Shown here: positions 3,955 to 58,275 of the stretch, in pieces
Layout of the letters: every line of letters begins with the position of its first letter
How positions within the stretch are numbered: position 1 is the stretch's first letter
DNA from: Squalus acanthias
Taxonomy: Eukaryota
Assembly (NCBI GenBank): GCA_030390025.1
Contig: CM059431.1
Coordinates: 119,290,001-119,354,000 of the forward strand
Direction of reading: 5' to 3'
Length of the DNA: 64,000 nucleotides
Program-made: the position numbers and the translations under genes
The notes under the pieces: model-generated
The model's database searches: none
Seen by the model: the letters and a program-made list of their open reading frames with translations, nothing else
Told to the model about the DNA's origin: nothing

Positions 3955-4335
3955 ACCAACAACTTGTATTTATATAGTGCCTTTAATGTAGTAAAACATC
4001 CCAAGGCGCTTCACAGGCGTGTTATAAAACAAAATTTGACACCGAGCCACATAAGGAGATATTAGGGCAGATGAACAAATGCTTGGTCAAAGAGGTAGGT
4101 TTTAAGGAGCGTCTTAAAGGAGGAAAGAGAGGTCGAGAGGCAGAGAGGTTTAGGAAGGGAATTCTAGAGCTTTGGGCCTAGGCAGCTGAAGGCACGGCCG
4201 CCTATGGTTGAGTGATTAAAATCAGGGATGCTCAAGAGGGCAGAATTAAAGGAGCGCAGAGATCTCGGGGGGTAGTGGGGCTGGAGGAGTTTACAGAGAT
4301 AGGGAGGGGCGAGGCCGTGGAGGGATTTGAAAAAT
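3955..4335 (-). mobile_element. L2-type LINE 3' end
   Basis: Minus-strand ORF2 C-terminus (KSLHGLAPPYL...LRS...GGRAFS...PKL) followed by the L2-type tail (plus strand acttgtatttatatagtgccttt). Confidence 0.8.
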
Positions 4336-4495
4336 TGTAAAATCAAAAAGTGAACACCAGAGATAATAAAATCAAACTAAAGGAGGGCAAACAAGAGAAA
4401 CAAGACTGAAATGGCAACATCTAGGAGAAGTAAAATTAAGATGGAGGCTTTGGGTTATGTTGAGTGTGGAATGTTCGCAAGTGGGAAAACCATAT

Positions 4496-7400
4496 GGGGC
4501 TAGAAATTAATTATAGCCCAGGAATGGGCAGTATTTATAGAAAAGTTTGTGGGAGGGAAATTTGCTACGGCTCTTCGGGGGGGTTTAAACTAATTTGTCA
4601 GGGGGATGGGAAAAAGGGCTGTAGTCCACGAGCCAGAGGTGAGTGTAGGGAGGTACTGAGGAGGGTATCAAGGTCGCAGGAATGTACCGGCAGACAGGAA
4701 GATGGCTTGAAGTGTGTCTACTTCAATGCAAGGAGCATCCGGAATAAGGTAGGAGAACTTGGAGCGTGGATTGGTACTTGGGACTACGATGTGGTGGCCA
4801 TTACGGAGACATGGTTAGAACAGGGACAGGAATGGTTGTTGGAAGTTCCGGGGTATAGATGTTTCAGTAAGAGTAGGGAAGTTGGTAAGAAAGGTGGGGG
4901 AGTAGCATTGTTAATCAAGGATAGTTTAACAGCGGCAGAAAGGCAGTTCGAGGGGGATCTGCCGTCTGAGGTAATATGGGCTGAAGTTAGAAATAGGAAA
5001 GGAGCGGTCACGTTGTTAGGAGTTTTCTACAGGCCCCCAAATAGTAATAAAGATGTGGAGGAAGAAATTGCAAAGCAGATTATGAATAGGTGTCATGGGT
5101 GACTTCAACTTTCCAAATATTGATTGGAACCTTTATAGGTCAAACAGTTCGGATGGGATAGTTTTTGCACAGTGTGTGCAGGAGGGTTTCCTGACACAAT
5201 ATGTGGATAGACCGACAAGAGGTGGGGCCACGTTGGATTTGGTACTGGGTAATGAACCGGGCCAAGTGTTTGATTTGTATGTGGGAGAGCACTTTGGAGA
5301 TAGTGACCACAATTCGGTAACTTTCACTATTGCAATGGAGAGGGATAGGGCCATACGGCAGGGCAGGGTTTATAATTGGGGGAGGGGTAATTATGATGCG
5401 ATTAGGCAAGAATTAGGGAGTATAAGATGGGAACAGAAACTATCAGGGAAAGGCACAAACGAAAAGTGGAGCTTTTTCATGGAGCAATTACTGCGTGTCC
5501 TTGATAGGTATGTCCCTGTCAGGCAGGGAGGAAATGGCCGAGTGAGAGAACCATGGTTCACAAAAGAGGTTGAATGTCTAGTCAAGAGGAAAAAGGAAGC
5601 GTATGTAAGGATGAGAAAACAAGGTTCAGTTGGGTCGATTGAGGGGTACAAGGTAGCAAGGAATGAGCTAAAAAAAAGAGCTTAGGAGAGCTAGGAGGGG
5701 GCATGAGAAGTCCTTGGCGGGTCGGATCAAGAAAAATCCCAAGGCTTTTTACTCTTATGTGAGAAATAAAAGAATGACCAGGGTGAGGGTAGGGCCGGTC
5801 AAGGACAGTAGTGGGAACTTGTGCATGGAGTCAGAAGAGATAGGAGAGGTGATGAATGAATACTTTTCGTCAGTGTTCACCGAGGAGAGGGGCCATGTTC
5901 TTGAGGATGAGAGTGTGATAAAGGTGGATAGGCTGGAGGTGGTAGATGTTCTGAGGGAAGATGTTTTAGCAATTTTGAAGAACCTGAGGGTCGATAAGTC
6001 CCCTGGGCCAGATGGGATATATCCTAGGATTCTTTGGGAGGCAAGGGAGGAGATTGCAGAGCCTTTGGCTTTGATCTTTGGGTCCTCACTGTCCACGGGG
6101 ATGGTGCCAGAGGACTGGAGAGTGGCGAATGTTGTTCCTCTCTTCAAGAAAGGAAATAGGAATGACCCTGGTAATTATAGGCCGGTTAGTCTTACTTCGG
6201 TGGTTGGTAAGATAATGGAAAAGGTCCTGAGGGATAGGATTTATGACCATTTGGAAAGGGGCAACTTAATCAGGGATAGTCAACACGGATTCGTGAAGGG
6301 TAAGTCTTGCCTAACAAATTTGATTGAATTCTTTGAGGAGGTAACTAAGTGTGTAGATGAAGGTAGAGCAGTTGATGTCGTATACATGGATTTTAGTAAG
6401 GCGTTTGATAAGGTTCCCCATGGTCGTCTCATGAAGAAAGTAAGGAGTTGTGGGATAGAGGGAAATTTGGCCGATTGGATAAGTAACTGGCTAACTCATA
6501 GAAGGCAGAGGGTGGTGGTGGATGGAACATTTTCGGACTGGAGACCAGTTACCAGCGGTGTGCCACAGGGGTCGGTGCTGGGTCCTCTGCTGTTTGTGAT
6601 TTTTATCAATGACTTGGAGGAGGGGACTGAAGGGTGGATCAGTAAATTTGCTGATGACACCAAGATTGGTGGAGTAGTGGATGAGGTGGAGGGCAGTTGT
6701 AGGCTGCAAAGAGACATTGATAGGATGCAGAGCTGGGCCGAAAAATGGCAGATGGAATTTAACCCTGATAAGTGCGAGGTGATTCATTTTGGTAGGGCAA
6801 ATTTGAATAAGGATTACAGGGTCAACGGCAGGGTTCTGAGGAATGTGGAGGAGCAGAGGGATCTGGGGGTTCATATCCACAGATCTCTGAAGGTTGCCAC
6901 TCAAGTGGATAGAGCAGTAAAGAAGGCCTATGGTGTGTTAGCGTTTATTAACAGAGGGTTTGAGTTTAAGAACCGTGAGGTTATGCTGCAACTGTACAGG
7001 ACCTTGGTGAGACCACATTTGGAATATTGTGTGCAGTTCTGGTCACCTCACTATAGGAAGGACGTAGAAGCATTGGAAAGAGTGCAAAGGAGATTTACCA
7101 GGATGCTGCCTGGTTTGGGGGGGGAGGTCTTATGAGGAAAGATTGAGGGAGTTGGGGCTTTTCTCTTTAGAGCGGAGGAGGATGAGAGGCGACTTAATAG
7201 AGGTTTATAAGATGATGAGGGGGTTAGATAGAGTGGATGTTCAGAGACTATTTCCTCGGGTAGAGGCAGCTGTTACAAGGGGGCATAACTATAAGGTGCA
7301 TGGGGGGAGATATAGAAGGGATGTCCGAGGTAGATTCTTTACTCAGAGAGTGGTTGGGGTGTGGAATGGACTGCCTGCTGTGATAGTGGAGTCGGACACT

Positions 7401-7972
7401 TTAGGAACTTTCAAGCGGTTATTGGATAAGCACATGGAGCACACCAGAGTGATAGGGAGTGTGATAGCTTGATCTTGGTCTCGGACAATGCTCGGCACAA
7501 CATCGAGGGCCGAAGGGCCTGTACTGTGCTGTACTGTTCTATGTTCTATGTTCTATAATTAGCGTCAGGCGCTAATGCTTTCGACTGCATGCAAAATTCA
7601 TTCTCACTGCTCAGAGAAATGATTGGGGCCTAGCTTAGTGATGTTGCACTCAAAAGGTGGACCAATATCGGGTGCAGTCTAATCTCAGCTCATCATTGCC
7701 ACAGTCTTTTCCTAGTACTTAAAGGGGAGGTTCATTGGTACTGCAGCACCTCATTCTCAGCATTGCTGGCAGTGCACGCTCACTGATGTCATGATCTGCC
7801 TGGAGTTGAAGTCCCCGGCGGTTCCTCGTACCGGCGGCACAATGGGGGGGGGGGGGCGGTATTTGCCGTGAGATGATTAATTCGCCTCGCCCCGGCGCTA
7901 CTGCATCAGCACCCCATTAGCACTCTCTGCAGGTGCTAACAGGAGGCGCTAACCTACCGAATTTTTCTCCCC
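4496..7972. mobile_element. Harbinger-derived non-autonomous element split by a CR1 insertion
   Basis: 4496-4550 and 7556-7770 match the left end of the 380-3013 element (ttatagcccaggaatggg...; ttagcgtcaggcgctaatg...; ttaaaggggaggttca). The right TIR gaatttttctcccc ends at 7972. Confidence 0.7.
4552..7555 (+). mobile_element. CR1 LINE, 5'-truncated, near-complete ORF2 (APE endonuclease + RT) with frameshifts
   Basis: Endonuclease motifs NARS, ITETW, GDFN, SDH. RT motifs [39 protein letters not shown]. Frameshifts at ~5095, ~5680 and ~7120. Tail (gttctat)n. Confidence 0.95.
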
Positions 7973-8830
7973 ATTTACCTAAAAAGCAAAACTGTTCATT
8001 GATCAGTAAGCTTAAAGAAAGGGTTAAGGCCTTGGCTAGCACGGCACAGAGGCAATCAAAAATGGGGGGATTTTTGAGGGTGAGTGGATAGTATTAGACT
8101 CAGTAAGGTGAGAAATTGCAAGTCAATGATATGACCAGGCAAACATGAAATCTTGACAGTGAACTATCAGGGGCTGGAGATCAGTATAACCCAAAAGATA
8201 AGGCTGTGCTAATATAGAGACTAGTGCTGAGAGAAGCCAACTAAATTGGGATATTGAAAAAAAACAGAAAATACTCAGCAGGTCAGGCAGCATCTGTGGA
8301 GAGAAAATCAGAGTTAAAGGACCGAGGCCTAGAAATTCGGGGGTTTAGCGCCACCTGTTACCACCAGATTCGGGGAAAAAAATGGCGGCGGCCACTCTTC
8401 CACCTGTTGCTGGCAGGTGCCACGGCGGCCGCCATTTTCAGATGGCTGGCAGCGCTGCCGATGTCGGCGCTTGCCATAATTATGTAAATGATGCAGATTG
8501 TGACGTCGGTGAGTGTGCACCACTCAATTCAAGCCCGGACTGCGAGTTTGGAGTTCGCAGTATTACTTACCGACATGCCTTAAGTGTGACGAGCTGAGCA
8601 AGTGTTGAGAAGCAGGACGTCGGCTCCAGCAACAGTATTTAAAGGGATCATCAGCAACTACTTGCAGCTGACATGTTTGTTCAGTTTGACTGGCTCTGTG
8701 GAACTCTCTGCAACTCCAGCAGCTTTATTAACTTCTTTCAATGTTCTAAGGTAACAGGGAGTGTTGTTGCAAGTGGAGAACCCCTTCATTCTTATTTAAA
8801 TGCTTCTGCTCACAACACTTGCTCACAGTC

Positions 8831-11747: not shown

Positions 11748-13367
11748 GAGCTAAAAATTCGGGGGTTTAACGCCACCTGTTACCGGCAAAAAGTTGCATT
11801 TAGAGGGCGGCCGCCACTCTTTTGTCAGCTAGTGGCGGGTCCCATGGTGTCCGCCATTTGGCAAGACCCGGCAGTGCTGCTGGTGACATCCATCGCCCTG
11901 CAAATCTCTCTCTCTCTCTCAAATGGAAATGAAGGAGAGGTGACGTCAGTCGGCGTGCAACAGCGACTTAACGTCACTACGGCAAACTTGGAAACTTGGA
12001 CCTTTGTGCTGAGTTCACACTGGGTCCTAAGCTCGCCATGTAAACCTAGCATTCAGCAGACTGACAGGCGCTGTCAGCACCTCTTAAAGGGACACACACA
12101 TCTTTCAGGTAAGTTTGCATTTAAGCTTTTGGACTGTGTTTTTTTTGATTTTATTGAAATAGTGGCTTGCTCCAATACGTGTTAAACGTTTTTTAAGTGT
12201 GTAGGGAGTGCTGCTGGATGCTTGTAAGGCCTCGGATGGTAAAGGAAGGCTGTGAGAAGACAGAAAATGCTGCAAATACTCAGCAGGTCAGACAACATCC
12301 GTGGAGAGAGAAACAGAGTTCACCTCTTGGGTTAAGATGCTGCCTGACCTGCTGAGTATTTCTAGCCTTTTATGCTGTCATTTCAAATTTATAGCACCCG
12401 CTCGCTGAGGGAAGAGCAAGATGCAGAAGAGTAAGAAGCAGAAGAGGAAGAAGCCAAAGAAGAGGAAACAGAAGAGGAGGAAGCCGAGGAGGAGGAAACA
12501 GAAGAGGAGGAAGTCAAAGAGGAGGAAACAGAAGAGGAGGAAGTCAAAGAGGAGGAAACAGAAGAGGAGGAAGCCGAGGAGGAGGAAACAGAAGAGGAGG
12601 AAGCCAAAGAAGAGGAAACAGAAGAGGAGGAAGCCAAAGAAGAGGAAACAGAAGAGGAGGAAGCAGAAGGATGCAACCACTGCTCTGAGGTCATGAAGTT
12701 TCTTTGGGCACTGAAGCCAGGTCATGGGGGCAACACTGCTGGCAGTGATGGCCTAGGTGATGTGGTCCCACATCATTCTTTCTGAAGGGCCTCCTGGCCC
12801 CTGTGGATAGAGGACTTCTCTACCAGTGTTGACCCCTACACAAAGCTGGAGTGTTGCGTGCGAGACCCTGGGTGCCCCTTCCCTGGCTTGCTGAGCCATT
12901 TATGTTAGTGCTGAGGCACTTTGCCCATTTTTTGAGGTTCAGAAGGGAATTCAGCTTTAAGAGCTGAAGACTCCCATTTGGGACTTCTTTTTAATGTTAT
13001 TTTTTTTTAAAAGGCAGTAAGGGCTGAAAACTGCAATTTTTCACTTCATTTTTATTTTATTAGTTCAGAAGGTATTGCCCTTTTAATGCATTCCCCTTTT
13101 AATTTCCCACAATGCCTAGTGAACTCTATTGCTTAGCTTCCAGAGGCTGTTGGAACATCAAACGTCACTTCTGGATGGCAACTTCGACTCCCATGTCTGC
13201 ACGAACACCACCAGGACGGCATTACATGGTAAGTTAGCACTGGGCTAAAAATCTTTAGGCCTGAGTGCAAATTTTTCTCCTGTAGCGCTTCGTCCATTTT
13301 CAGCAGCCGTTAACCCGAGGCCACGGTGACACCGGCAACTCTCGTGGCAGCCACGAATTTTTAGCCC
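11748..13367. mobile_element. Non-autonomous Harbinger deletion derivative
   Basis: Left end gagctaaaaattcgggggtttaacgccacctgttacc matches 8326 onward. Right TIR gaatttttagccc. Contains a Myb exon-1 remnant on the minus strand at ~12680-12899 (...WLQCPKKLHDLR). Confidence 0.7.
12436..12668. repeat. 30-bp purine-rich tandem repeat (~8 copies)
   Basis: Unit ~agcagaagaggaggaagccaaagaagagga/aac. Reads as poly-Glu in one plus frame, consistent with an expanded acidic tail of the Harbinger transposase. Confidence 0.9.
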
Positions 13368-33109: not shown

Positions 33110-34763
33110 TGTAAGGGTCCCGTGTCTCAGACGGTGCCGGTGCGAGGTTAGGCCTTCGTTGCCTAATACTATTGCTTGCTCTGGTCTCCGACCAGCCTTT
33201 TTGTAATAAGCACCTGTGAGTGGTTTGACCCACTCGCCCTTACGGTTCTAACACTGGACTTAGGTGCAGGGAGCAGTAATGCAGAGAAAACTCAAATAGA
33301 CCCGGTTGAATAGTACGAATTGGAAATCTTTATTGCATAGCGTCCAAAATCACGAAGTACATGTCATAGGTGCAAATTAACGAGAGTACAAGTATACATA
33401 CATTCATAAAGCTTGGTCTATGGAAATGAAGAACGCACGGCACATCGTAAAAAGGGGAACACATTATACTTTAACCTTAATAAAACCACCCTCCCTTAAC
33501 AATACCTACACTACGTCTAGATTTGTAGGATCGTAAAACATGCTCACCACTCGTGTTACTTCGGAGAATTTTAAAGTGAGGCACTCAGCTCGTTTCGCTG
33601 CAGCGCCTGACTGTCACGTGTTTGGAAGGGTCTCTGTACCCCACTTGTTTATTTTCGCTGCTGCGACAAGCAGGCCAGACTCCCTGTTGTCATGAAGAAC
33701 TCGACGGACCTCGGACACAGTTCAAAGAAGAGTCTTCCTGTGCTCGACACCGGTTGTCGGTAGATTTCAATGAAGAGTTCTTTATTATATTTTCGGGCGC
33801 GGTCGGGGTTTACTGACCGTGGCGGCACGTGAATTCTTCTTCTTTTCTTGTCGTCTCGTCTCGTCTCTTCGGGCCTCCGGGTCCAGACACCGTTTACCGA
33901 CACTCGGGATGGTGTACCCTGTTACTTGCCCTTGTCGGGGCGGCTCGTTCCGATTGAGCTCCACCCAACATTCGAATAACCGACCAGTACGGCTAAAAGT
34001 CAAGAGTCAACAAAGTCCAGAGAAACACAGAAGGCTGCTCGTCCAGCAGAGCGATGCTCGAGGTTAAGAATAAGAGAATAAGAGTTCAGCAGTCAGCAGC
34101 GAGATAAGAGAGTCAAGAGACCGATGGACATTTGTTCACTATAGTTATAGTGCTGTGTCTGCTTATCTCCCACCAAAATCTTAATGTTTGTCTTTTGTGT
34201 AATATTGGCGCTCAAAACTCCCAGCATGGGGCGATTCTTCTCTTTAACGGGTTTCGGTAGCACCTCAAACTGGCCAACTACCAGTTAATGTTTTCCCCAT
34301 TGTTGACCCAGCCAGGATTGTATGAATCGTCTCCCTGACTGGTTTTGGGGGCCCCCGAATACTTGCTTAATCACCCGTCGATGTCTCTCTCATTGTAGAG
34401 CCGGGGGGGTATTTGTGTATTGATGTGTCTGGATGGGCCTTCGATTGCCCAGTACAATGGTCCTTACTTGTGCATGGAAAACGATTCCAGCACTTATATC
34501 TTTGCTATTGTTCCAAATGCAAACGGGTTGCATCCTGTCTTTATCAGTGTTTATCGAGTATGATCCAATCTTATATTGAATGTTTATTCGACGACATCTT
34601 GTCTGCCCACTGTATTTCTGGAAGCTTCTGCCACGATGCGCAGCGGCCATTTTACAGGCTTCTGCGTCCTGTATATCATGACAGCATTTTGTTTAATAAA
34701 ACTGATCAAACAAATCTGCTTCTCTCTAGTTATTTCGAATCGCGATAATAGCGAAACTTTACA
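33110..34763 (-). repeat. 3' LTR of the pol-less element
   Basis: Plus strand tgtaagggtcc...aaactttaca. Roughly 97-98% identical by eye to 40624-42270. Candidate minus-strand CCAAT at ~34204-34208, TATAA at ~34145-34149 and AATAAA at 33329-33334. Confidence 0.95.
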
Positions 34764-34775
34764 GTCCCTCCTGTT
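34764..34775 (-). promoter_or_regulatory. Polypurine tract
   Basis: Minus strand AACAGGAGGGAC immediately precedes the TG of the 3' LTR. Confidence 0.7.
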
Positions 34776-35159
34776 GATGCGAATAACTCCGCTTATCGTA
34801 ACAATTAAAAATGGTGGTGAGCAAAATTATCCCGATTCTCCACATCCAAACACTCCCGGTACTGAAACTATCTATGGCCTCCATGCAGTCCTAATTTCCC
34901 AGGGAAATTACATTGTCTAAACTTGGACAAATCGTAGGCAGCATTGACTTTAAACTTACACTGCGTATACGCCTTCCAGGTGCAAAAGGCCGATGCCTCT
35001 CGCACCACCTGCATATGCATGTTTTATTATAAAAGGAAAAATAATCAAAACAACCATTTTTAAAAAAATACAAAGTTCCAAACTTAGTTACACATACTCA
35101 TAACTAATAACAATTACAAAAACACACATGGTAAAATGGAGCGGCGTCATCCTGGCCGT

Positions 35160-37508
35160 TTACGCGGTACTTTCCTCGTTCACGTGCACGTAACGTTCTC
35201 TCCACTCCCCTGTGTTCTCCTGCTTTGTGAGGCGTTTGCCTCTTTTGCAGTGTACGACCAATAGGTACACTACAATCACGACTTGACACACTACCAAAAT
35301 GTGGGAGGCTATCCTGATCCATGACGGAACTTCAATATTAGTGAACAGGTCCCACCACGGTGGGTCTACTATGTCTAGTATCTCTGTCCCTATCTCTACA
35401 GTATTTTGTTCCAGGGTGTAAAAAATTTTTGTGATACCATGACGGCTTTTAAAATCTTGGTGAGGTGTTCAAGGAGAGGGGGAATGATGTATCCGAAATG
35501 CGACGAATCGCTGCAAGTCTGTGAAATTCTCTTTTACTGTGAGGTGAACAGTGGATGGTTCAGGGATCGGGACAATTCGCTGTTGTGCCACTTGAACTTC
35601 AGCCCTGGGTTTAAAACAGAAACTGCTGTCACTCACCGGACACCGGCTGTGCTGTCCATGCTGGTAGTGTTGCGCTGCAGTGGTAACGCAATACATTCCA
35701 CCCCCTATGTATGCCACCTGTGGGGGCACATGATCTTGTGTCATTGCTTCCATGGTGCAATTCATGGGCTTCGCGCCAGCCGTTCTGAACCCGCATTGTG
35801 GTGTTAAAAAGGCATTCAAGTGCTGGGGACACAGTATGATGTGTGCTCCCCGGCCACAACAACCCGATAGGTCGGTACCTGTCATTGTTTGCTACCAGCG
35901 GATGATGTAAGGTGGGACCGCTGCGTAGCGAATGTGGGCTCCCCCCTGAATGACACCAATGTTCTCCACCCGATACACCGGGGCGGGCTTTGCTGTGTCG
36001 CCCAACACCGGCATACGTAGTACTATACCCATGATGGTATGGTTTGACTGTCCGCAGTCCATGGGGACTGGGTATGCCTCTGAGGCTAGCCTGAGCTGGC
36101 ACGGGCTTAATGCGTTCTGAAAAGGGTGGAGCGCCTGCAGGTGTTTGTTACTTATCCAGGACGGGACCAAACCTTGTTTTAAATCCTCCAAATTACTGCG
36201 GCCCTCGCCCAGTAACCACGCCCCGTATAGTACGCACACCTCGTTCTGTGCAGCTTGATCGGATGCATTCCGATCTTCCCTGATCAGGGCATTTACCGTT
36301 CTCGCATGCTTCTCCAGCTCTGCTATAATCTCTTTTAAGTGTAGTGTCATGGCCTGATCCTCATGTAACTCAGACCCTACTACCTTGTTTTCGCTTGTGA
36401 GGATGCTTTTTAACTGTGTTTTTAAACCGTTGATCTGGGTCTGCAGCTCCACGTTGTCTAGAGCGTTGACCACAGATGTTCCCGTATTAAAAGCAGTGAA
36501 CACATCATTCACAACACCCCTTCTTTGTCTCCCCACCTGACCCAAAACTTCGTGTGGTGCGGTGTACAAGCTTGTTTTGTCAATCTCTGCAAAATCAAAC
36601 TCGTAGAATTGTCTGAACATGTTTGTTAACAGGACCTGGTACAATTGTTCCGTTTCTTTGGGACACCACTCTGGTAAACGCACCTCGGTGAGATTTAGAA
36701 TCACTGAGGCCACCGCGTAATGTACCCCTTGATATAGTATCTGGTCTGTTGGCACCAGTACCAGACCATTCCCGGGCCCCTTAGTGGTTTTAGGGCACCC
36801 TTCTTCCTGAGCCAAAGCCACCGGAATCGTGGGCGGAGACTTGCGTGGGCGTGTGATGAGTTCAGTGGCGTTTACCGGGATCGGGGAGAATGGAGCTCCG
36901 CACCCCTTTGTGCTGACATCCCACCTCATCCCTTTCCCGTTATCCTGCCACTGGTGTACGAAAAATATGGATATACCCTTGTGGCAAACGTACTTCGATC
37001 CCCACATACAAACATATATTCCCTCATCCGGTTCCCACCATTTGTCCCAACAGACTTTCAATTGTCCGTTAGTCCCCGTAATTGTCCGATGGGTATTGTT
37101 ACCCAATCGCTCCCACTCGACCGAGGAATTTCTCATAGTCTTGCTTAACTTCCGTAACCACCACCATCGGCTCAATGGGACCTTCCCATTGCATGTCAAA
37201 CAAATCCTTTTGCCGACGGTGACGCTGATTCTGGGTGCAATGATCCTCACTCTGGGGCACAGCAAAGAAGTCTCTTTGTAGGCAAATCCGGATGCTCTGG
37301 AGTATTCCGTCGAATTCGTTCCCAGCCATCCCAGCCACCTTCCCTTATGGAAATAAGTGGCGGTTTCCTCAGCCTCTTGCTCCCCGGTCCCATCCGTCGC
37401 GATGGGGCCCGTGTCCCCGGAGCAACCGAACACAACGACATCCTTGGTGAGGCCCCGATAGGCCAATCCATATCCGATCGTTGCGAGCACTATCAGAATC
37501 CTTTCCAT
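35160..37508 (-). pseudogene. env: Envelope glycoprotein (~782 codons): signal peptide, Ig domain, class I fusion (F-like) ectodomain, TM, cytoplasmic tail; disrupted
   Basis: Hydrophobic N-terminus MERILIVLATIGYGLA; Ig motif C106...W117...DEGIYVC167; furin site RQRR|GVVNDVFTAF followed by a heptad helix. In-frame TAG at 35892-35894, then a Cys-rich region and a second lesion at ~35420-35500. The frame continues to ...WIRIASHILVVCQVVIVVYLLVVHCKRGKR...STA with TAA at 35160-35162. Confidence 0.85.
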
Positions 37509-37520
37509 CTTTCCTGGTTC

Positions 37521-37545
37521 CTGTGATCAGATAAAATGATGTAGC
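37521..37545 (-). promoter_or_regulatory. Putative env splice acceptor
   Basis: Minus strand ...catcattttatctgatcacAG|gaaccaggaaagATG. The AG is 12 nt upstream of the env ATG. Confidence 0.6.
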
Positions 37546-37779
37546 CAGCCTCCCAAGAGTCTCTGGCTTTTTGTGAAGGGTGAGCGGGTCCCTTGACCTT
37601 GTCTCACGTATAACGACATGTATGCTGGATAGACTTTAACTATTCCTATCACTAACTCCCATCACTTTACCATTTACTTTAAAAATTAAACTACAATCTT
37701 ACCAAACTAAAAAAAACTATAAACTTAAACTTATCCTAAACTTAACTGTACAGCGCCGCCCGTTCCCAGGGCGGCCTAC

Positions 37780-38796
37780 CTAAATTCTGCGAAGGCTGCC
37801 ACGTGCTTTTCCCAGTGGCGGGGGGGCACTGACCCCTTCCTTTGATCTGCCGCAGCCTGTCGTCGCTGCGCTGGGACTGGGATCTCCCTGGGCTGCCTTG
37901 AACTTACGCCTGGGGGTGTACGAGGGATTTGACCACAACTTCCTGGGCTGGGGTGTCCGACTTGACCTACGGAGGGCTACCTTGGGCAAGATTTCCAGGA
38001 CCGACGGACCGGGAACCGAGACTTCCACCGTCACGGCCTGTGGTCCCACCACAGCTGCCGGCTCTGTCTCCCCTGGCTCCGCCCCCCTGGGCTCGGGATC
38101 TGCGGTTTCCGACTCCACCTTACTTGCTTCCCCAGTAAGTGGAACTCCACTCGCAATCCCTATCTCCCCTATGCTTGGGTCGAGGGCGGAACCTCCGTCC
38201 TCCGACCCCACCACCTCTCCGACCGGGTCACTACCTTGGTTGAGCTCTCCGAGCTCTTCCTCATCTGAATCCCATGACCAAGAAAAGATCCTACACTTTT
38301 CCAAAATGTCTTCTCCCCTCACGCAAGCTGCTTTACCGGCCTGTGTGCCCTGCGGTTCTACCCGGGGCTGAGAGTCCCCACTCGCAGGTCTGGCCCCTCC
38401 CCTAATACAGGCCACCGCCCCTGCTTGTGCATTCTGTGTAATCTCGCCTGCTGGAGGCTGAAGATTTCTATTCTGTTTTAGTTTGGGCAACTCTGCTACC
38501 ATGGCTTGCAACTGCGGGGTGGTGAATTCCCCCGGGGTTGTTGAGCAAACCATCCCTCTGGCTTTGGATAGGGCTTGGGTCAGACCTTTTATCCTTTCCT
38601 CACAGGGCCCATGGTTTAAAACCTCATACTCCCTGCTCCTGGCTACCATGTAGGCTGCCTTTATGTCTCTAAACTGCCCTTCTAGCCCATCTACTTTCCC
38701 CATTAAACGGGCGTTCTCCTCCCGCAAGGCCTGCTCTTTTAACCTGGCCTCCTTACAGGAGGCCCCCTCCTGTGTGTGTCTTTCAAGGGGACACAT
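37780..38796 (-). CDS. ORF2 (338 aa): truncated Gag paralog (coiled coil + first capsid-like helix) with an acidic/Pro-rich then basic tail; in frame with gag
   Basis: aa16-84 align without gaps to Gag aa122-190 (24/69 identical). QLQAMVAELPKL resembles Gag QLRAMINHVRKL. The ORF is uninterrupted. Confidence 0.75.
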   Translation of the reverse strand: MCPLERHTQEGASCKEARLKEQALREENARLMGKVDGLEGQFRDIKAAYMVARSREYEVLNHGPCEERIKGLTQALSKARGMVCSTTPGEFTTPQLQAMVAELPKLKQNRNLQPPAGEITQNAQAGAVACIRGGARPASGDSQPRVEPQGTQAGKAACVRGEDILEKCRIFSWSWDSDEEELGELNQGSDPVGEVVGSEDGGSALDPSIGEIGIASGVPLTGEASKVESETADPEPRGAEPGETEPAAVVGPQAVTVEVSVPGPSVLEILPKVALRRSSRTPQPRKLWSNPSYTPRRKFKAAQGDPSPSAATTGCGRSKEGVSAPPPLGKARGSLRRI

Positions 38797-38820
38797 GTAG
38801 GCAGGCTGCGCTAGTTCCAG

Positions 38821-40551
38821 TCAGAAGTCTGGGTTGTATGGGGCTGTTGCTACCTTCCCGTGTGAGGTCATAAGAGACCGCATGGCTCCTAACATCGACT
38901 CGATCGCGTCGGGATGGATAGGCACACCAGCTCCTCTCTCAGAGACAGGCGTTTGGGCTCGGACTGTGCGAGCTTTGTCCCTGGAGTCCTTCCAGGGATT
39001 CCTGTAGTTTTTACGCCAGTGACCTGTCTTCCCACACCCGTAACAAACACCACTGGTTTGTGGGGCGCGATTTCCCTCCTGATGCCACTCTTTCTGAGCC
39101 GGAGCTGCAGGCTTTGCTTCATGCACCTTTCCCTTAAGGGGACGCGCTCCCGTGCTCCTAGTGTTCCGATACCCTATGGTGAGTCGATTTAGGACAGACT
39201 CCTCCGTTGTGGCGGCGTTAGTGGGATCAAACCATGCTCTGGCCTGCTCCCTGATGGCTGGCAAGCTGTTGGCTACTAGACACCTGAGCCAATGAGCTTT
39301 CCCGGCGCCGTTAAGATAGGCGCGCGCTGGCGCACCTGGGCAGCTACGCTGGTAGACTGGCCACAGCCCGTCGGCGAAAACCTTCGGGGGTTCTCCCTCC
39401 ATCTTTATGGTTTGACTCAATCTGACGAACGGACCTTCGTCATCCGCCCCTAAAACTTCTAGGACCTCGTCCCGTAACTCCTCATAGGTTTTATTTCCCT
39501 TCTTGCTCTCGTCTGAGAGACACTGAAGGATCGAGCTATCTAACGAGAACAGCAACATTTTGGTCTTTTCCTCATCGTCGCAGCCATTAATTGCTGCGGT
39601 CTGTTCTACTTCCCTAAAATGTACGGAAGGGTCGTCTGACTCGGACAGTTTCCGTACATGGTTAATCATTGCTCTCAGCTGGTGTGAGCTGTGGGGCAAT
39701 ACAAGCTGGTTCAGGACATCCCCGTCATCCCCATTGGCTGCATTCGGGCCTCTCTTGTGACCTCGGAGCGGACACATCGGTCCCGGTCCCGACTCTACCT
39801 CCAGGGACTGTCCTACCTGGGGCACCTCCTTCTCTATTTCCACCACTTCCTCCCTTACCCAGGTTGCCGAATAGCTGGGTGGCGCGGAGGGCACAGTGGC
39901 AAATACCTCTTCTGCTTTGTCTGGTAGGGATTTTGGGAATTCCCTACCCACCTGTGGCTGGTTTGCTGACGGGCTGATGAGGCACACCAAGCCGTTTGCC
40001 TTATTCAGGGCCTCTCTTAGGTTCCCTATCTCCTTCTGGCAAACACTGTGGTCGGCTCCCTCATGCCTATCCTCGAGGGCCATCTTGTATGTCGCCCTAA
40101 CTCCCTTCAAGCTTTCTTCCTGGGCTTTTATCTGGTTAGCAAGGCGGACACACCGTTCTCTAATCCTACCCTCGTTTAATTTCGCTTCCGTGACCTGACA
40201 TTCTAAGTAATCAATTTTAGCCTCATGGTGGTTGGCTACTATTTGGCGTTCCTGATGTAATGCATTAAATGATACAATGAGTTTTTGTCCTCCCGTGATC
40301 TTTTCCTCCATCTCAACTTCCAGTTCCCTGATCTGAGCTGCCTGTGCCACAATGACCTGGTCCGAAAGTTGGACTTGCTTCTTGTAGCACATCAGCCAGT
40401 CCGCTTTCTCTACCGACTTCTTATGCTCTTTACTGCCTGTCCATTTGATGGCGGCGTCTAGCGGACGCTTATCCATCAGTAGGTCACTTATCCACCTTTT
40501 GGTTAAGTTAACCTTCCCAAACACATCGTCAGCTACCCTCTGATCCATCAC
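38821..40551 (-). CDS. gag: Gag-like protein (576 aa)
   Basis: First ORF after the PBS. N-terminal coiled coil, PSAPPSY late domain, helical capsid-like region (DPSVHFREVEQTAAINGC.., EGEPPKVFADGL), and zinc knuckle CYGCGKTGHWRKNY with the last C replaced by Y (TAC). Confidence 0.88.
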   Translation of the reverse strand: MMDQRVADDVFGKVNLTKRWISDLLMDKRPLDAAIKWTGSKEHKKSVEKADWLMCYKKQVQLSDQVIVAQAAQIRELEVEMEEKITGGQKLIVSFNALHQERQIVANHHEAKIDYLECQVTEAKLNEGRIRERCVRLANQIKAQEESLKGVRATYKMALEDRHEGADHSVCQKEIGNLREALNKANGLVCLISPSANQPQVGREFPKSLPDKAEEVFATVPSAPPSYSATWVREEVVEIEKEVPQVGQSLEVESGPGPMCPLRGHKRGPNAANGDDGDVLNQLVLPHSSHQLRAMINHVRKLSESDDPSVHFREVEQTAAINGCDDEEKTKMLLFSLDSSILQCLSDESKKGNKTYEELRDEVLEVLGADDEGPFVRLSQTIKMEGEPPKVFADGLWPVYQRSCPGAPARAYLNGAGKAHWLRCLVANSLPAIREQARAWFDPTNAATTEESVLNRLTIGYRNTRSTGARPLKGKVHEAKPAAPAQKEWHQEGNRAPQTSGVCYGCGKTGHWRKNYRNPWKDSRDKARTVRAQTPVSERGAGVPIHPDAIESMLGAMRSLMTSHGKVATAPYNPDF

Positions 40552-40600
40552 ATTTCGCCTATTGAAACCAGGTCTAAAACATTACTCTCCTGCTGCCAAT

Positions 40601-40618
40601 GTCCTGCTGCGGTCGCCA
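40601..40618 (-). promoter_or_regulatory. Primer-binding site, tRNA-Arg
   Basis: Minus strand TGGCGACCGCAGCAGGAC, 5 nt after the 5' LTR. From memory it matches 17/18 the complement of the vertebrate tRNA-Arg(TCG) 3' end (TGGCGACCGCGGCAGGAC). Confidence 0.8.
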
Positions 40619-40623
40619 TTTTC

Positions 40624-42270
40624 TGTAAGGGTCCCGTGTCTCAGACGGTGCCGGTGCGAGGTTAGGCCTTCGTTGCCTAATACTATTGCTTGCTCTGGTC
40701 TCCGACCAGCCTTTTTGCAATAAGCACCTGTGAGTGGTTCGACCACTCGCCCTTACGGTTCTAACACTGGACTTCGGTGCAGGGAGCAGTAATGCAGAGA
40801 AAACTCAAATAGACCCGGTTGAATAGTACGAATTGGAAATCTTTATTGCATAGCATCCAAGATCATGAGTACATGTCATAGGCGCAAATTAACGAGAGTA
40901 CAAGTATACATACATTCATAAAGCTTGGTCTATGGAAATGAAGAACGCACGGCACATTGTAAAAAGGGGAACACATTATACTTTAACCTTAATAAAACCA
41001 CCCTCCCTTAACAATACCTACACTACATCTAGATTTGTAGGATTCGAAAACATGCTCACCACTCGTGTTACTTCGGAGAATTTTAAAGTGAGGCACTCAG
41101 CTCGTTTCGCTGCAGCGCCTGACTGTCACGTGTTTGGAAGGGTCTCTGTACCCCACTTGTTTATTTTCGCTGCTGCGACAAGCAGGCCAGACTCCCTGTT
41201 GTCATGAAGAACTCGACGGACCTCGGACACAGTTCAAAGAAGAGTCTTCCTGTGCTCGACACCGGTTGTCGGTAGATTTCAATGAAGAGTTCTTTATTAT
41301 ATTTTCGGGCGCGGTCGGGGTTTACTGACTGTGGCGGCACGTGAATTCTTCTTCTTTTCTTGTCGTCTCGTCTCGTCTCTTCGGGCCTCCGGGTCCAGAC
41401 ACCGTTTACCGACACTCGGGATGGTGCACCCGGTCACTTGCCCTTGTCGGGGCGGCTCGTTCCGATTGAGCTCCACCCAACATTCGAATAACCGACCAGT
41501 ACGGCTAAAAGTCAAGAGTCAACAAAGTCCAGAGAAACACAGAAGGCTGCTCGTCCAGCAGAGCGATGCTCGAGGTTAAGAATAAGAGTTCAGCAGTTAG
41601 CAGCGAGATAAGAGAGTCAAGAGACCAATGGACATTTGCTCACTATAGTTATAGTGCTGTGTCCGCTTATCTCCCACCCAAATCTTAATGTTTGTCTTTT
41701 GTGTAATATTGGCGCTCAAAACTCCCAGCATGGGGCGATTCTTCTCTTTAACGGGTTTCGGTAGCACCTCAAACTGGCCAACTACCAGTTAATGTTTTCC
41801 CCATTGTTGACCCAGCCAGGATTGTATGAATCGTCTCCCTGACTGGTTTTGGGGGCCCCCGAATACTTGCTTAATCACCCGTCAATGTCTCTCTCATTGT
41901 AAAGCCGGGGGGGGGCATTTGTGTATTGATGTGTCTGGATGGGCCTTCGATTGCCCAGTACAATGGTCCTTACTTGTGCATGGAAAACGATTCCAGCACT
42001 TATATCTTTGCTATTGTTCCAAATGCAAATGGGTTGCATCCTGTCTTTATCAGTGTTTATCGAGTATGATCCAATCTTATATTGAATGTTTATTCGACGA
42101 CATCTTGTCTGCCCACTGTATTTCTGGAAGCTTCTGCCACGATGCGCGGCAGCCATTTTACAGGCTTCTGCGTCCTTTATAATCATGACAGCATTTCGTT
42201 TAATAAAACTGATCAAACAAATCTGCTTCTCTCTAGTTATTTCGAATCGCGATAATTGCGAAACTTTACG
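40624..42270 (-). repeat. 5' LTR of the pol-less element
   Basis: Plus strand tgtaagggtccc...aaactttacg (terminal CA mutated to CG), followed by the TSD GTAT. Confidence 0.95.
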
Positions 42271-43599: not shown

Positions 43600-45950
43600 A
43601 CACAGCATTACCATCGCCGAATCCCCCACCATCAACATCCTGGGGCTCACCATTGACCAGAAACTTAACTGGACCAGCCACATAAATACTGTGGCAACAA
43701 GAGCAGGTCAGAGGCTAGGTATTCTGCGGCGAGTGTCTCACCTCCTGACTCCCCAAAGCCTTTCTACCATCTACAAGGCACAAGTAAGGAGTGTGATGGA
43801 ATACTCTCCACTTGCCTGGATGAGTGTAGCTCCAACAACACTCAAGAAGCTCGACACCATCCAGGACAAAGCAGCCCGCTTGATTGGTGTAAGGGGGACG
43901 TGTCTCAGACGGTGCTGGTGCGAGGTTAGGCCTTCGTTGCCTATACTATTGCTTGCTCTGGTCTCCGGCCAGCCTTTTTGCAATAAGCACCTGTGAGTGG
44001 TTCGACCCACTCGCCCTTACGGTTCTAACACCTGGACTTAGATGCAAGGGTAAGTAATGCAGAGAAAACTCAAATAGACCCGGTTGAATAGCACGAAATG
44101 AAAATCTTTATTGCATGGCGTCTAAAATCATGAAATACATGTAATAGACGCAAATCAAAGAGAGTACAAGTATACACACGTTCATAAAGCTTGGTCTATG
44201 GAAATGGAGAACACACGGCACATCGTAAAAAGTGGAACACATTATACCTTAACCTTATAAAAAACCACCCTCCCTTAACAATACCTAAACTACATCTGGA
44301 TTTGTAGGATCGGAAATCATGCTCACCACTCGGCTTACTTCGGAGATTTTAAAGTGAGGCACTCAGCTCGTTTCGCTGCAGCGCCTGACTGTCACGTGTT
44401 TGGAAGGGTTTCTGCACCCCACTTGTTTACTTTCGCTGCTGCGACAAGCAGGCCAGACTCCCTGTTGTCATGAAGCAGTCGATGGACTCAAGCCATCTTA
44501 GAATTCAAAGAAGGATCTTCCTGTGTTGCAGTACATGTAGAAGTCGGTAGAACTCAAAGGAAAGTTCTTTTAGTTATATTTTCGGGCAGTGGTCGGGGTT
44601 TACTGACCGTGGCGGCACGTGGAATTTCTTCTCGTCTTCTTCTCTTCTCGTCTCCTCGGGCCTCCGGGTCCAGATACCGTTTACCGACACTCGGGATGGT
44701 GTGCCCTGTTACTTGCCCTTGTCGAGGCGGCTCGTTCCGATTGAGCTCCACCCAACACTCGAATAACCGACCAGTACGGCTAAAAGTCAAGAGTCAACAG
44801 AGTCCAGAGAATCAAATGACCAAAAGTCCAGCCCCAAGGAACAGCTTCAGCAAGGGTCACCAGAGAGATAAGAGTTCAGCAAGTGAATAAGAGAGTGATG
44901 GACATTTGTCCTCTATAGCTATACTGTTGTGTCCGCTTTATCTCCCGCTCAAATCTAAATGTTTATCCTTTGTGTGATTTTGGCGCTTAAAACTCCCAGC
45001 ATGGGGCGATTATCTTCTTAACGGGTTTTGGTAGCACTTGAAACTGGCCAACTATCTGTTAATGTTTTCCCCATTGTAGAGCCAGCCAGGATGTGTATGA
45101 ATCGTCTCCTCGACTGGTTTTGGGGCCCCCCGAATACTGGCTTAATCACCCGCCAATGTCTCTCTCATTGTTGAGCCGGGGGGGTATTTGTGTATTGATG
45201 TGTCTGGATGGGCCTTCGATTGCCCAGTTCAATGATCCTTACTGTGCATAGGAAAACGATTCCAGCACTTATATCATTGCTATTGTTTAGAATGCAAACG
45301 GGTTGCATCCTGTCTTTATCAATGTGTACCGAGTATGATCCAATCTCATACTGAATGTATATTCGACGCCATCTTGTCTGCCCACTGTATCTCTGGAAGC
45401 TTCTGCCACGATGCGCGGCGGCCATTTGGCAGTCTTCTGTGTCCTTTAATATTAGAACAGCATTTCGTTTAATAAAAATGATCAATTGAATCTGCTTCTC
45501 TCATGTTATTTTGAATCGCGATAATTGCGAAACTCTACAGTAGCACCCCCTCTACCACCTTAAACATTCACTCACTCCACCACCGGTGTAACGTGGCTGC
45601 AGTGTGTACCATCTATAAAATGCACTGCAGCAACTTGCCAAGGCTTCTTCGGCAGCACCTCCTAAACCCGCGACCTCTTCCATCTAGAAGGACAAGGGCA
45701 GCAGACTTATGGGAACACCACCACCTCCAAGTTCCCCTCCAAGTCACACATCATTCTGACTTAGAAGTATATCGCTGATCCTTCATCGTCGCTGGGTCCA
45801 AATCCTGGAACTCCCTCCCTAACAGCACTGTGGAAATACCTTCACCACACAGACTGCAGCGGTTCAAGAAGGCGGCTCACCACCACCTTCTCAAGGGCAA
45901 TTAGGGATGGGCAATAAAGGCTGGCCTTGCCAGCGATGCTCACATCCCAT
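43600..45950 (+). mobile_element. Non-LTR LINE 3' fragment (CR1/L2 group) split by the solo LTR
   Basis: ORF2 C-terminus (AGQRLGILRR...IYKAQVRSVMEYSPLAW...IQDKAARLIG) stops at 43887 and resumes at ~45544 (TPSTTLNIHSLHHR...) into the 3'UTR. Confidence 0.85.
43888..45539 (-). mobile_element. Solo LTR of the same family as 33110-42270, older subfamily
   Basis: tgtaagggggacgtgtctcag...aaactctaca, colinear with the proviral LTRs but visibly more diverged. The 4-bp flanks TTGG / GTAG look like a decayed TSD. Confidence 0.92.
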
Positions 45951-54844: not shown

Positions 54845-56500
54845 GGGAGATATCTATGCACGGACTGGTGTCTCTCAGTCCCCTCACGCTCAGGGAGGAA
54901 TCTGTACACTAACTGGTGTCTCTCAGTCTCCTCTCCCTCATGAAAATATCTATATATTGACTGGTGTCCCTCAGTCCCCCTCTCTCCGGGAGATATCTAT
55001 ACATTGATTGACGTCTCTCAGTCCCTCTCTCTCTGGGAGATATCTGTACACTGACTGGTGTCTCTCAGTCCCCTCTCTTTCAGAGAGATAACTATACACT
55101 GACTGGTGTCTCTCAGTCCCTCTCTCAATGAGATATATGTACACTGACTGGTGTCTCTCATTCCCCTCTCCCTCATGGAAATGTCTATACATTGACTGGT
55201 GTCTCTCAGTCCCTCTGTCTCCTGGAGATATCTGTACACTGACTGGTGTCCCTCAGTCCCCTCTCCATCAAGGAAATATCGCTACACTGACCTGTGTCTC
55301 TCAATCCCTCTCTCTTTGGGAGATATCTGTACACTAACTTGTGTCTCTCAGTTCCCTCTCTCTCTTTCAGGGAGATATCTGTAAGCTGATTGGTGTCTCT
55401 CAGTCCCCTCTCCCTCAGGGAGGTATCTGTACTCTGACTGATGTCTCTCAGTCCCTTCTCCCTCAAGGAGATATCTATACATTGACTGATGTCTCTCTGT
55501 CCCCTCTCTTTCAGGGAGATATCTATACAATGACTGGTGTCTCTCAGTCCCCCCTCCCTCAGACAGATATCTGTACACTGACTGGTGTCTCTCAGTCCCC
55601 CCTCCCTCAGACACATATCTGTACACTGACTGGTGTCGCTCAGTCCTCTCTCCCTCAGGGAGATACTTGTACACAGACTGATGTCCCTCAGCCCCCTCTC
55701 CCTCAGGGAGATATCTGTACACTGACTGGTGTCTCTCAGTCCCTCTCTCTCCGGGAGATATCTGTAAGCTGACTGGTGTCTCTCAGTCCCTCTCTCCCTG
55801 GGAGATATCTGCAAGCGGACTGGTGACTCTCAGTCCCTCTCTCTTTGGTAGATAGCTGTACACTGAATTGTTGTCTCTCTGTCCCCTCTCCATCAGGGAG
55901 ATACCTGCACACTGACCGGTGTCTCTCAGTCCCTCTCTCTCTGAGAGATATCTGTACACTGACTGGTGTCTTTCAGACCCCTCGCTCTCTCAGGGAGATA
56001 TCTGTCAGCTGACTGGTGTCTGCCAGTCACTCTCCTTCTGGTAGATATCTGTACACTGACTGGTGTCCCTCAGTACCCTCTCCATCAGGGAGATATCTGT
56101 ACACTGACCGGTGTCTCTCAGTCCCTCTCTCTCTGGGAGATATCTGTACACTAACTGGTGTCTCTCAGTTCCCTCTCTCTCTCTCAGGGAGATATCTGTA
56201 CACTGGCTGGTGTCTCTTAGTCACTCTCCCTCAGGGAGATATCTGTAAGCTGACTGGTGTCTCTCAGTCCCCTCTCCCTCAGGGAGATATCTGTACACTG
56301 GCTGGTGTCTCTCAGTCACTCTCCCTCAGGGAGATATCTGTAAGCTGACTGGTGTCTCTCAGTCCCCTCTCCCTCAGGGAGATATCTGTACACTGACTGG
56401 TGTCTCTCAGTCCCCTCTCCGTCAGGGAGGTATCTGTACTCTGACTGATGTCTCTCAGTCCCTCTCTGTCAGGGAGATATCTGTACACTGAATGGTGTCC
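54845..56500. repeat. ~45-48-bp minisatellite (~35 copies)
   Basis: Unit ~gggagatatctgtacactgactggtgtctctcagtcccctctccctca. Confidence 0.95.
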
Positions 56501-57869: not shown

Positions 57870-58275
57870 CGGCCTACATTGAGGCCTGTTGCTATGGTAA
57901 GCTAACCAGGGCCTACATTGAGGCCTGTTCCTATGATAAGCTAACCAGGGCCTACATTGAGGCCTGTTTCTATGATAAGCTAACCAGGGCCTACATTGAA
58001 GCCTGTTGCTATGATAAGCTAACCAGGGCCTACATTGAGCCCTGTTGCTATGGTAAGCTAACCAGGGCCTACATTGAGGCCTGTTTCTATGATAAGCTAA
58101 CCAGGGCCTACATTGAAGCCTGTTGCTATGATAAGCTAACCAGGGCCTACATTGAGGCCTGTTGCTATGGTAAGCTAACCAGGGCCTACATTGAAATCTG
58201 TTGCTATTGTAAGCTAACCAGGGCCTACATTGAGGCCTTTTGCTATGGTAAACAAACCAGGTCCTACATTGAGGC
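57870..58275. repeat. 39-bp minisatellite (~10.5 copies)
   Basis: Unit ggcctacattgaggcctgttgctatggtaagctaaccag. Confidence 0.95.

Follow-up and report, generated by a model that had tools for sequence, protein, structure and literature searches.

Within a 64,000-nucleotide stretch of the Squalus acanthias genome (GenBank assembly GCA_030390025.1, contig CM059431.1, positions 119,290,001 to 119,354,000 of the forward strand; hereafter the window) we analysed ORF2, an open reading frame (ORF) in the pol position of a complete provirus that occupies 42269..33110 on the minus strand and has the layout LTR-gag-X-env-LTR, with long terminal repeats (LTRs) at both ends and ORF2 in the place of X. 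The sequence comparisons indicate that ORF2 is what remains of the pol frame in an endogenous retrovirus that is non-autonomous and internally deleted. Protease (PR), reverse transcriptase (RT), RNase H (RH) and integrase (IN) are gone from it, and in their place stands a segment resembling the coiled-coil region of Gag. Our overall reading, to which we assign a probability of roughly 0.55, is of a non-autonomous provirus whose Gag-Pol slot encodes a Gag-leader-hairpin-tail product, which would obtain its enzymes from full-length relatives and whose hairpin would be retained for engaging Gag or for a role in cis. The original prediction for this locus had taken ORF2 to be a diverged and truncated second copy of Gag.

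Composition of the ORF2 frame

ORF2 is a mosaic of four parts, in which the A and B types refer to families of related proviruses in the same genome:

37780..38796, minus strand: ORF2 frame, 338 amino acids (aa), ATG-defined (ORF list).
38785..38820, minus strand: pol leader, 12 codons right after the gag TGA (LELAQPAYMCPL), codons -8 to 4, including the private ATG at 38796..38794 (protein alignment).
38473..38784, minus strand: Gag-like insert, ORF2 aa 5-108 (~104 codons), a predicted coiled-coil hairpin plus a short helix (homology and AlphaFold2).
38398..38472, minus strand: start of the B-type Pol tail, ORF2 aa 109-133 (25 codons), aligning to 'EDRNLRPAAGEISQNAQAGAVACLRGG' of Pol B.
37783..38397, minus strand: A-type Pol C-terminal tail, ORF2 aa 134-338 (205 codons), predicted to be disordered, followed by the TAG stop at 37782..37780 (protein alignment and blastn).

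The leader aligns over all 12 residues with the heads of full-length Pol proteins of families A, B and C, with the consensus L[KVE][PA]AQPVYLCxL. As a full-length reference we used the element L009, where gag ends at 1703 and a 1437-aa Pol frame opens at 1704 in the same frame, with a single TGA. This Pol comprises protease, RT, dual RNase H, integrase and a long C-terminal tail; a Pfam search found RVP, RVT_1, RNase_H and rve, and sequence searches of the PDB matched Pol to Ty3, to the RT of murine leukaemia virus (MLV) and xenotropic MLV-related virus (XMRV), to foamy PR-RT and to the integrase of prototype foamy virus (PFV). None of RVP, RVT_1, RNase_H or rve was found in ORF2 by the same kind of search. 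When the window was compared with L009 using blastn, identity was 94.6% through gag to 27 nucleotides (nt) before the stop and resumed at 96.6% in the Pol tail, with 450 nt of the window standing in place of 3746 nt of PR-RT-RH-IN, and the Gag-like insert itself gave no blastn match to L009. At the protein level the A-type tail is identical to the C-terminus of the intact 1437-aa Pol of L009 at 197/205 positions, and an own-genome search showed ORF2 aa 130-338 recurring at 93-95% identity within 1437-aa open frames. The GASC common to ORF2 and the protease motif DTGAS was considered as a breakpoint and rejected; B-type copies read ETSC here, and the alignments place the actual breakpoint after leader codon 12.

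Since ~60% of ORF2 (aa 134-338) is post-integrase Pol tail and the frame starts as pol leader, its description as a free-standing, truncated second Gag does not hold. The Gag-like part is confined to aa 5-108, and neither a capsid domain nor a zinc knuckle was detected in ORF2, with no Pfam match (Pfam search and AlphaFold2 model).

Gag homology and predicted structure of the insert

The gag features needed for this comparison are the following:

38821..40548, minus strand: gag, 575 aa from an internal ATG, with the stop TGA at 38823..38821 (ORF list and translation).
39970..40212, minus strand: Gag aa 113-193, homologous to the ORF2 insert and comprising the end of a long helix, a loop and a return helix (BLASTP and AlphaFold2).

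Over aa 5-108, sequence similarity supports homology of ORF2 to the Gag of the same virus group. BLASTP of Gag against ORF2 paired Gag 121-193 with ORF2 16-88 without gaps (25/73 identical, 41/73 positives, E 8e-12), which agrees with the gap-free alignment proposed earlier over a slightly shorter span (24/69). In a shuffle test with ORF2 1-133 shuffled, the Smith-Waterman score was 129, compared with 34.6 +/- 5.3 for the shuffled sequences (best shuffle 69), and 0/1000 reached the observed score; using the coiled-coil stretches alone on both sides, the score was 128 against 28.0 +/- 5.4, again with 0/1000 reaching it. Likewise, of the 11 columns in this region that show no variation among eight Gag sequences, ORF2 retains 10, including H62, C65, I69, L72, L76, G81 and P88. 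The proposed match of the QLQAMVAELPKL segment to the start of the capsid-like region was also confirmed, as the best local match of ORF2 89-110 is the homologous site, the first capsid-like helix, in 6/6 Gag proteins of at least 400 aa, with shuffles reaching the score in 59, 1, 3, 0, 0 and 0 of 2000. Furthermore, ORF2 does skip the late-domain segment as had been described, with no counterpart to the linker at Gag ~194-287, which carries PPSY at aa 223.

AlphaFold2 modelling of the 346-aa ORF2 frame predicted helices at aa 3-54, 63-85 and 94-100, with a predicted local distance difference test (pLDDT) score of 67-78, and a disordered remainder with pLDDT below 50. The Gag model consists of a 120-residue helix (40-159), a loop, a return helix (168-191), a disordered linker and a capsid-like domain, and a helix-loop-helix is seen at homologous positions in the two models. 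Using VIA-align, Gag 113-196 gave moderate matches to antiparallel coiled-coil hairpins (seryl-tRNA synthetase arm, Z 7.1; Kif21A, Z 7.0), and for Gag 289-370 (some alignments from 254) the top 13 rows were all retroelement capsids, again of moderate strength (Z 7.1-8.8). These included the C-terminal domain (CTD) of PEG10 (Z 8.8, root-mean-square deviation 4.3, 83 aligned), dArc1 (8.2), Copia (8.1), Ty1 (8.0) and the capsid (CA) CTD of MLV (7.5), and the 575-aa Gag is accordingly modelled with a CA-like fold. Foldseek alone returned no match to the Gag model at E <= 0.001. Prediction of a complex between Gag 45-200 and ORF2 frame 9-118, run without controls, scored 0.00 and speaks neither for nor against binding.

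Source of the insert and spread of the cassette

Identity of the insert to the Gag coils is 34% for family A, to which the window Gag belongs, ~45% for family B and ~38% for family C, and a tree of 14 segments places it outside all three, on a long branch of its own (0.7 changes per site). A scan of 1.84 billion representative proteins identified five relatives, the best with 44% identity, two of which are a catshark hypothetical protein and a whale shark predicted protein, and comparison of ORF2 1-133 with proteins of 185-592 aa gave 0/190 candidates at E <= 0.001. No donor gag closer than 34-45% was present among the matches listed (the best 150 of 7104 and the best 40 of 1389 genome candidates), where the genome search was swamped by the family's own copies. 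The earlier proposal had offered duplication or capture as the source. The diverged Gag segment in the pol position stands, and in view of the separate long branch of the insert and its identity of 34-45% to Gag coils A-C, capture from a distinct, unsampled relative now appears more likely than a recent duplication. In the whale shark predicted protein, a Gag-coil fragment is directly joined to an Env-like N-terminus, and it has the look of a separate deletion product, running from gag to env, of a related virus in another shark.

The 20-mer that spans the leader-insert junction has 346 occurrences in the genome at up to one mismatch, with 0 for a reversed-pattern control, and since one deletion junction is found in many copies, amplification came after the deletion. 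Stop-free Pol frames of 1437-1496 aa are common in the same genome and 131/131 of the scored Pol-head matches are 95-100% identical; full-length relatives that could supply the enzymes are thus present. The own-genome list searches provide lower bounds, with at least 165 matches from the best 119 of 9780 candidates and at least 182 from the best 150 of 7104. A class of ~160-aa frames was also considered as a possible tail-less subfamily and rejected, as these frames result from independent frameshifts or stops at differing tail positions.

A derivative of family B has the same leader and insert, and there the insert continues into the B tail in exact agreement with the Pol B sequence, while the window copy retains 25 B-type tail codons ahead of its A tail. 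Because the B derivative joins insert to tail in this way, the cassette (gag end, TGA, leader, insert and start of the B tail) is best explained as having arisen on a B backbone and then recombined into the A backbone of the window. Across 32 A-type copies the mean pairwise divergence is 1.2-4.9% in the cassette (1.2-2.2% at its centre), compared with 8-18% in gag and 4.5-11% in the tail. The cassette is less diverged than its flanks and would therefore have a younger common origin, the flanks having evidently been exchanged with diverse helpers.

Reading frame and expected product

We examined the frame in 53 copies, namely the window copy together with L002-L008, L012-L016 and L020-L059; L001 corresponds to the window copy, and the six full-length loci were excluded. 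Where the window copy has its ATG, 2/53 copies read ATG, 45/53 CTG and 6/53 TTG, and a TGA lies exactly eight codons upstream of this position in 48/53, in phase with a gag that ends ...APYNPDF. The gag stop is lost in 3/53 copies, which creates a continuous gag-X frame, and the upstream part is broken in the other 2/53. Contigs of four public runs (X1, X2, X3 and X9) also carry CTG at 38796; the kind of these contigs is only guessed, and they were read for sequence variants with no claim on expression. In full-length elements gag and pol occupy one frame with a single TGA followed by CTG or CTA, and this TGA-CTG/CTA arrangement is conserved.

In retroviruses that have gag and pol in one frame, pol is read by occasional readthrough of the stop codon. 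Because the frame lacks a start codon in the family as a whole and lies in phase right after the gag TGA, in the context TGA-CTG, readthrough is also the likely route here, and a Gag-X fusion occupying the place of Gag-Pol in particles is quite probably what is made, being the most likely product of this arrangement. Minimum free energy folds 3' of the stop differ between full-length and derivative elements, and diversity is too low for covariation.

Selection on the insert and competing explanations

In the reading that we prefer, PR, RT, RNase H and IN were swapped in an ancestor of the subfamily for ~104 codons that a distinct relative's gag had supplied, namely an antiparallel coiled-coil hairpin and the first capsid helix without the linker. 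This piece follows the 12-codon pol leader and precedes the disordered Pol C-terminal tail, in frame with both, and recombination later moved the cassette from a B-type to an A-type backbone. Occasional readthrough of the gag TGA would then place Gag-X in the Gag-Pol position in particles, with helper enzymes supplied by full-length relatives. We only tentatively suggest that the hairpin is kept by selection, either through pairing with the long N-terminal helix of Gag or through helping the defective RNA's own Gag-X to act in cis, by analogy with the fusion protein of mouse intracisternal A-particle (IAP) 1-delta-1. It is more doubtful still that the cassette represents a portable hyperparasite module, in which a Gag-derived, Gag-binding hairpin rides as passenger in the Gag-Pol slot, has moved between at least two retroviral lineages and is selected for exploiting the particles of relatives.

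Selection was assessed in the 48 copies with the canonical TGA (L012, L013, L016, L020 and L027 were dropped), and variants were counted as distinct single-step changes against the window sequence. The pairwise ratio of non-synonymous to synonymous divergence (dN/dS) was 0.50 in the insert, compared with 0.70 and 1.03 in shifted frames. Insert variants found in at least two of the 48 copies comprised 16 synonymous (S) and 23 non-synonymous (N) changes, with omega ~0.41 (p 0.006), while the same class of variant in the shifted frames gave omega 0.82-0.84 and was not significant; shared variants also differed from private ones (Fisher p 0.035). The gag control behaved as expected, with omega 0.34 for shared and 0.63 for private variants and ~1 in shifted frames. 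Shared indels in the cassette measure +69, -24 and -138 nt and are all in frame, the +69 nt being a tandem duplication which lengthens helix 1 by exactly 23 residues and which also occurs in runs X1, X2, X3 and X9. These patterns point to a modest signal of purifying selection on the insert. The suggestion that the frame had been maintained across copies is supported: it is kept open and shared insert variants carry the purifying signal, with private variants approximately neutral.

The alternative that survives best, and which we consider possible, is that the insert is a recombination scar, a template-switch filler between co-packaged RNAs with no protein function, which has spread by means of cis sequences and gag and whose frame is open since the copies are young. 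Several observations are in keeping with such a scar and weigh against a retained, functional hairpin. Private insert variants (S 16, N 55) have omega ~0.97 and look neutral, and the Pol tail displays no frame-specific constraint, with a pairwise dN/dS of 0.77 against 0.74 and 0.84 in shifted frames. Cross-reading of the searches indicates that the frame is open over its full length in ~26 of the 40 copies that rank highest by DNA identity (best 40 of 1389 candidates scored), and open frames alone prove little because young, neutrally decaying copies of an intact source give a similar fraction; the low divergence of the cassette is likewise explicable by a recent single origin without selection. 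A 138-nt in-frame deletion (38477-38614) in contigs of X1, X2, X3 and X9 removes ORF2 aa ~62-106, which covers helix 2 and the capsid-helix piece, and because this variant exists and persists, helix 2 would be dispensable for at least one lineage. Moreover, the intact leader-protease junction of family A has 2172 occurrences, which makes the derivative, with 346, about six times rarer, a ratio that gives no indication of any advantage in spreading.

To these must be added that the selection signal is small (39 shared variants) and comes from copies taken from lists that favour open frames. Only 36 nt past the TGA are common to full-length elements, so that a readthrough-stimulating RNA structure further downstream would be lost, and translation of Gag-X, readthrough and binding are each steps that we infer. 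The window's own copy is dead, as it has a stop in env and a CCHY zinc knuckle in Gag. A scar without function is, however, harder to reconcile with an omega of ~0.41 for shared variants in the true frame when both shifted frames lie at 0.82-0.84, with retention of 10/11 Gag-invariant positions despite an overall identity of 34-45%, and with three shared indels which are all multiples of three and include an exact 23-residue extension of helix 1. It also leaves aside that the cassette was apparently carried to a second backbone and is in frame there.

A further explanation, which we consider very unlikely, is that the cassette owes its retention to a cis-acting function of the RNA, for instance in stimulating readthrough or in packaging or dimerisation, and not to its protein. 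The very low nucleotide divergence at the cassette centre (1.2-2.2%) and a dS of 0.063 in the cassette compared with 0.114 in the flanks would suit such a role, as would a perfect 7-bp hairpin (GGCCTCC TGTAA GGAGGCC; 38746-38764, minus strand) which lies ~57 nt past the gag TGA, is present in the derivative cassette only and could be a readthrough or other RNA element. However, a recent single origin would by itself lead to a low dS, and the frame-specific deficit of non-synonymous shared variants points to constraint at the level of the protein. Least credible of all is the earlier model of an independently translated, truncated second Gag that co-assembles as a free adaptor or dominant-negative factor, which can draw on a real and significant Gag homology, on the ATG of the window copy and on interfering Gag fragments known elsewhere (such as Ty1 p22, present among the structural matches of the Gag model), but which is largely refuted for the family because a start codon is found in only 2/53 copies, and which also has against it the CTG of the four runs, the 60% of the protein that is Pol tail, the lack of a capsid domain or zinc knuckle in ORF2 and its presence in at least 346 LTR-bounded copies and not at a single host locus.

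Comparison with known systems

It is well established that defective proviruses can exploit intact relatives and, to our knowledge, in nearly all described cases the deletion just removes coding sequence or fuses gag to pol. On the reading of ORF2 as a remnant pol frame with a captured Gag hairpin, what is new is that the enzymes would have been swapped for a piece of a different virus's gag, held in a readthrough frame, and that the resulting cassette would then have moved to a second backbone. No description of this layout was found in the published literature, which was searched mainly at abstract level. If it is true that the hairpin binds Gag, the element would show how a parasite of retroviruses can evolve its own assembly handle. 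The host belongs to a poorly studied group of vertebrates with thousands of young copies. Related Gag fragments in shark records are annotated only as hypothetical proteins, and for annotation more generally there is a warning here, in that the ATG-defined 'ORF2' of one copy can misrepresent a readthrough frame that is family-wide.

Replication-defective transducing retroviruses express captured sequence as Gag-X fusions, depend on helpers and arise from recombination of co-packaged RNAs. The shark element resembles them in that Pol is replaced by captured sequence in the gag frame and in its probable helper dependence, but differs in that the captured piece is itself viral (the gag coil of a relative), lies after a presumably leaky stop and exists as hundreds of fixed germ-line copies. 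The Gag-derived interference factors Ty1 p22, Fv1 and enJS56A1 exert their effect via the capsid domain and are for the most part single host loci or products of internal initiation. They share with the shark insert the property of being a Gag fragment that could engage full-length Gag; unlike them, the insert consists of the N-terminal coiled-coil hairpin with only the first capsid helix and lies within a mobile element.

By analogy, the closest described case appears to be mouse IAP 1-delta-1, in which, according to the parts of the source drawn on here, a 1.9-kb deletion fuses gag to pol and the fusion protein acts in cis, with other proteins acting in trans (PMC6466679). Both are internally deleted, non-autonomous proviruses in which the deletion produced a novel in-frame fusion ORF, and both have many copies with one junction; the mouse element needs Gag and Pol from full-length relatives (PMC6466679, same parts), as the shark element probably would. 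The shark element differs from what those parts describe in having an intact gag and stop, in the loss of all four enzymes, in its foreign Gag-like insert, in retaining env and in needing readthrough, and its cassette was apparently transferred between lineages and is a minority form (346 vs 2172). ETn and MusD provide a second parallel from the same parts of that source, as a defective partner family mobilised by coding-competent relatives; ETn is without coding capacity there (PMC6466679), whereas the shark family keeps gag, X and env frames.

Lokiretroviruses, as described in the portions of PMC7947760 drawn on here, are gag-pol-env elements of lower vertebrates with dual RNase H, some of which have an extra smc-like gene of coiled-coil type, and no cartilaginous fishes are listed in those portions. 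The shark elements are similar in their gag-pol-env organisation, in the dual RNase H and in having a coiled-coil-type extra in some members (PMC7947760, same portions), and dissimilar in that the extra segment is apparently Gag-derived and replaces pol. The lokiretrovirus-type F0 env (PF00523) gave no match to the window env frame at E <= 1 or to the L017 env frame at E <= 0.01, and the PDB gave none at E <= 1 (N-terminal 538-618 aa searched). Membership of the lokiretroviruses is thus not supported by PF00523 env, the one feature compared.

Other features of the provirus and the window

The remaining features of the provirus are listed below:

40624..42269, minus strand: 5' LTR, 1.65 kb, with TG..CA ends (blastn against the 3' LTR).
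33110..34762, minus strand: 3' LTR (blastn against the 5' LTR).
40601..40618, minus strand: primer-binding-site-like 18-mer starting TGG..., 5 nt past the end of the 5' LTR (read from the sequence).
35469..37508, minus strand: env-like frame, 538 aa, with an in-frame stop at 35894..35892 and then the same frame continuing to 35469 (ORF list; env frames of L014 and L017 compared).

The two LTRs have 97.5% identity, with 27 mismatches and 7 gap openings in 1657 columns (blastn), and a 4-bp repeat, ATAC, flanks the provirus on both sides, which together with the TG..CA LTRs identifies it as a target-site repeat. Where the env frame of the window copy has its stop (35892-35894), the copies L014 and L017 remain open. 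In the env-like protein a hydrophobic stretch and heptad-like helices follow an RQRR site, and the env-like frames gave no Pfam or PDB sequence match over the N-terminal 538-618 aa searched.

The zinc knuckle of Gag (aa 502-515; 39004-39045, minus strand) reads C-X2-C-X4-H-X4-Y in the window copy, with the final C present in L009, and the zf-CCHC match of the window Gag has E 0.029, under the Pfam cut-off. An upstream ATG (40548-40619, minus strand), which overlaps the primer-binding-like site, opens a frame starting 'MATAAG...' that runs into gag without a shift of frame in other copies; the window copy has it out of the gag frame, with a stop after 23 codons. The true start of the family Gag may therefore lie upstream of the listed ATG.

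A third LTR copy at 43888-45542, 87% identical to the LTRs of the provirus, lies 1.6 kb upstream of the 5' LTR and could be a solo LTR or the remnant of a related element, and between the two is an RT fragment like that of a long interspersed nuclear element (LINE). Elsewhere in the window there are tandem arrays with a 48-nt unit (34.6 copies), a 39-nt unit (10.4 copies) and a purine-rich 15/30-nt unit, at 54845-56499, 57871-58275 and 12411-12669, and a strong GC skew (0.45 and 0.30) at 4-8 kb of the window (4001-8000).

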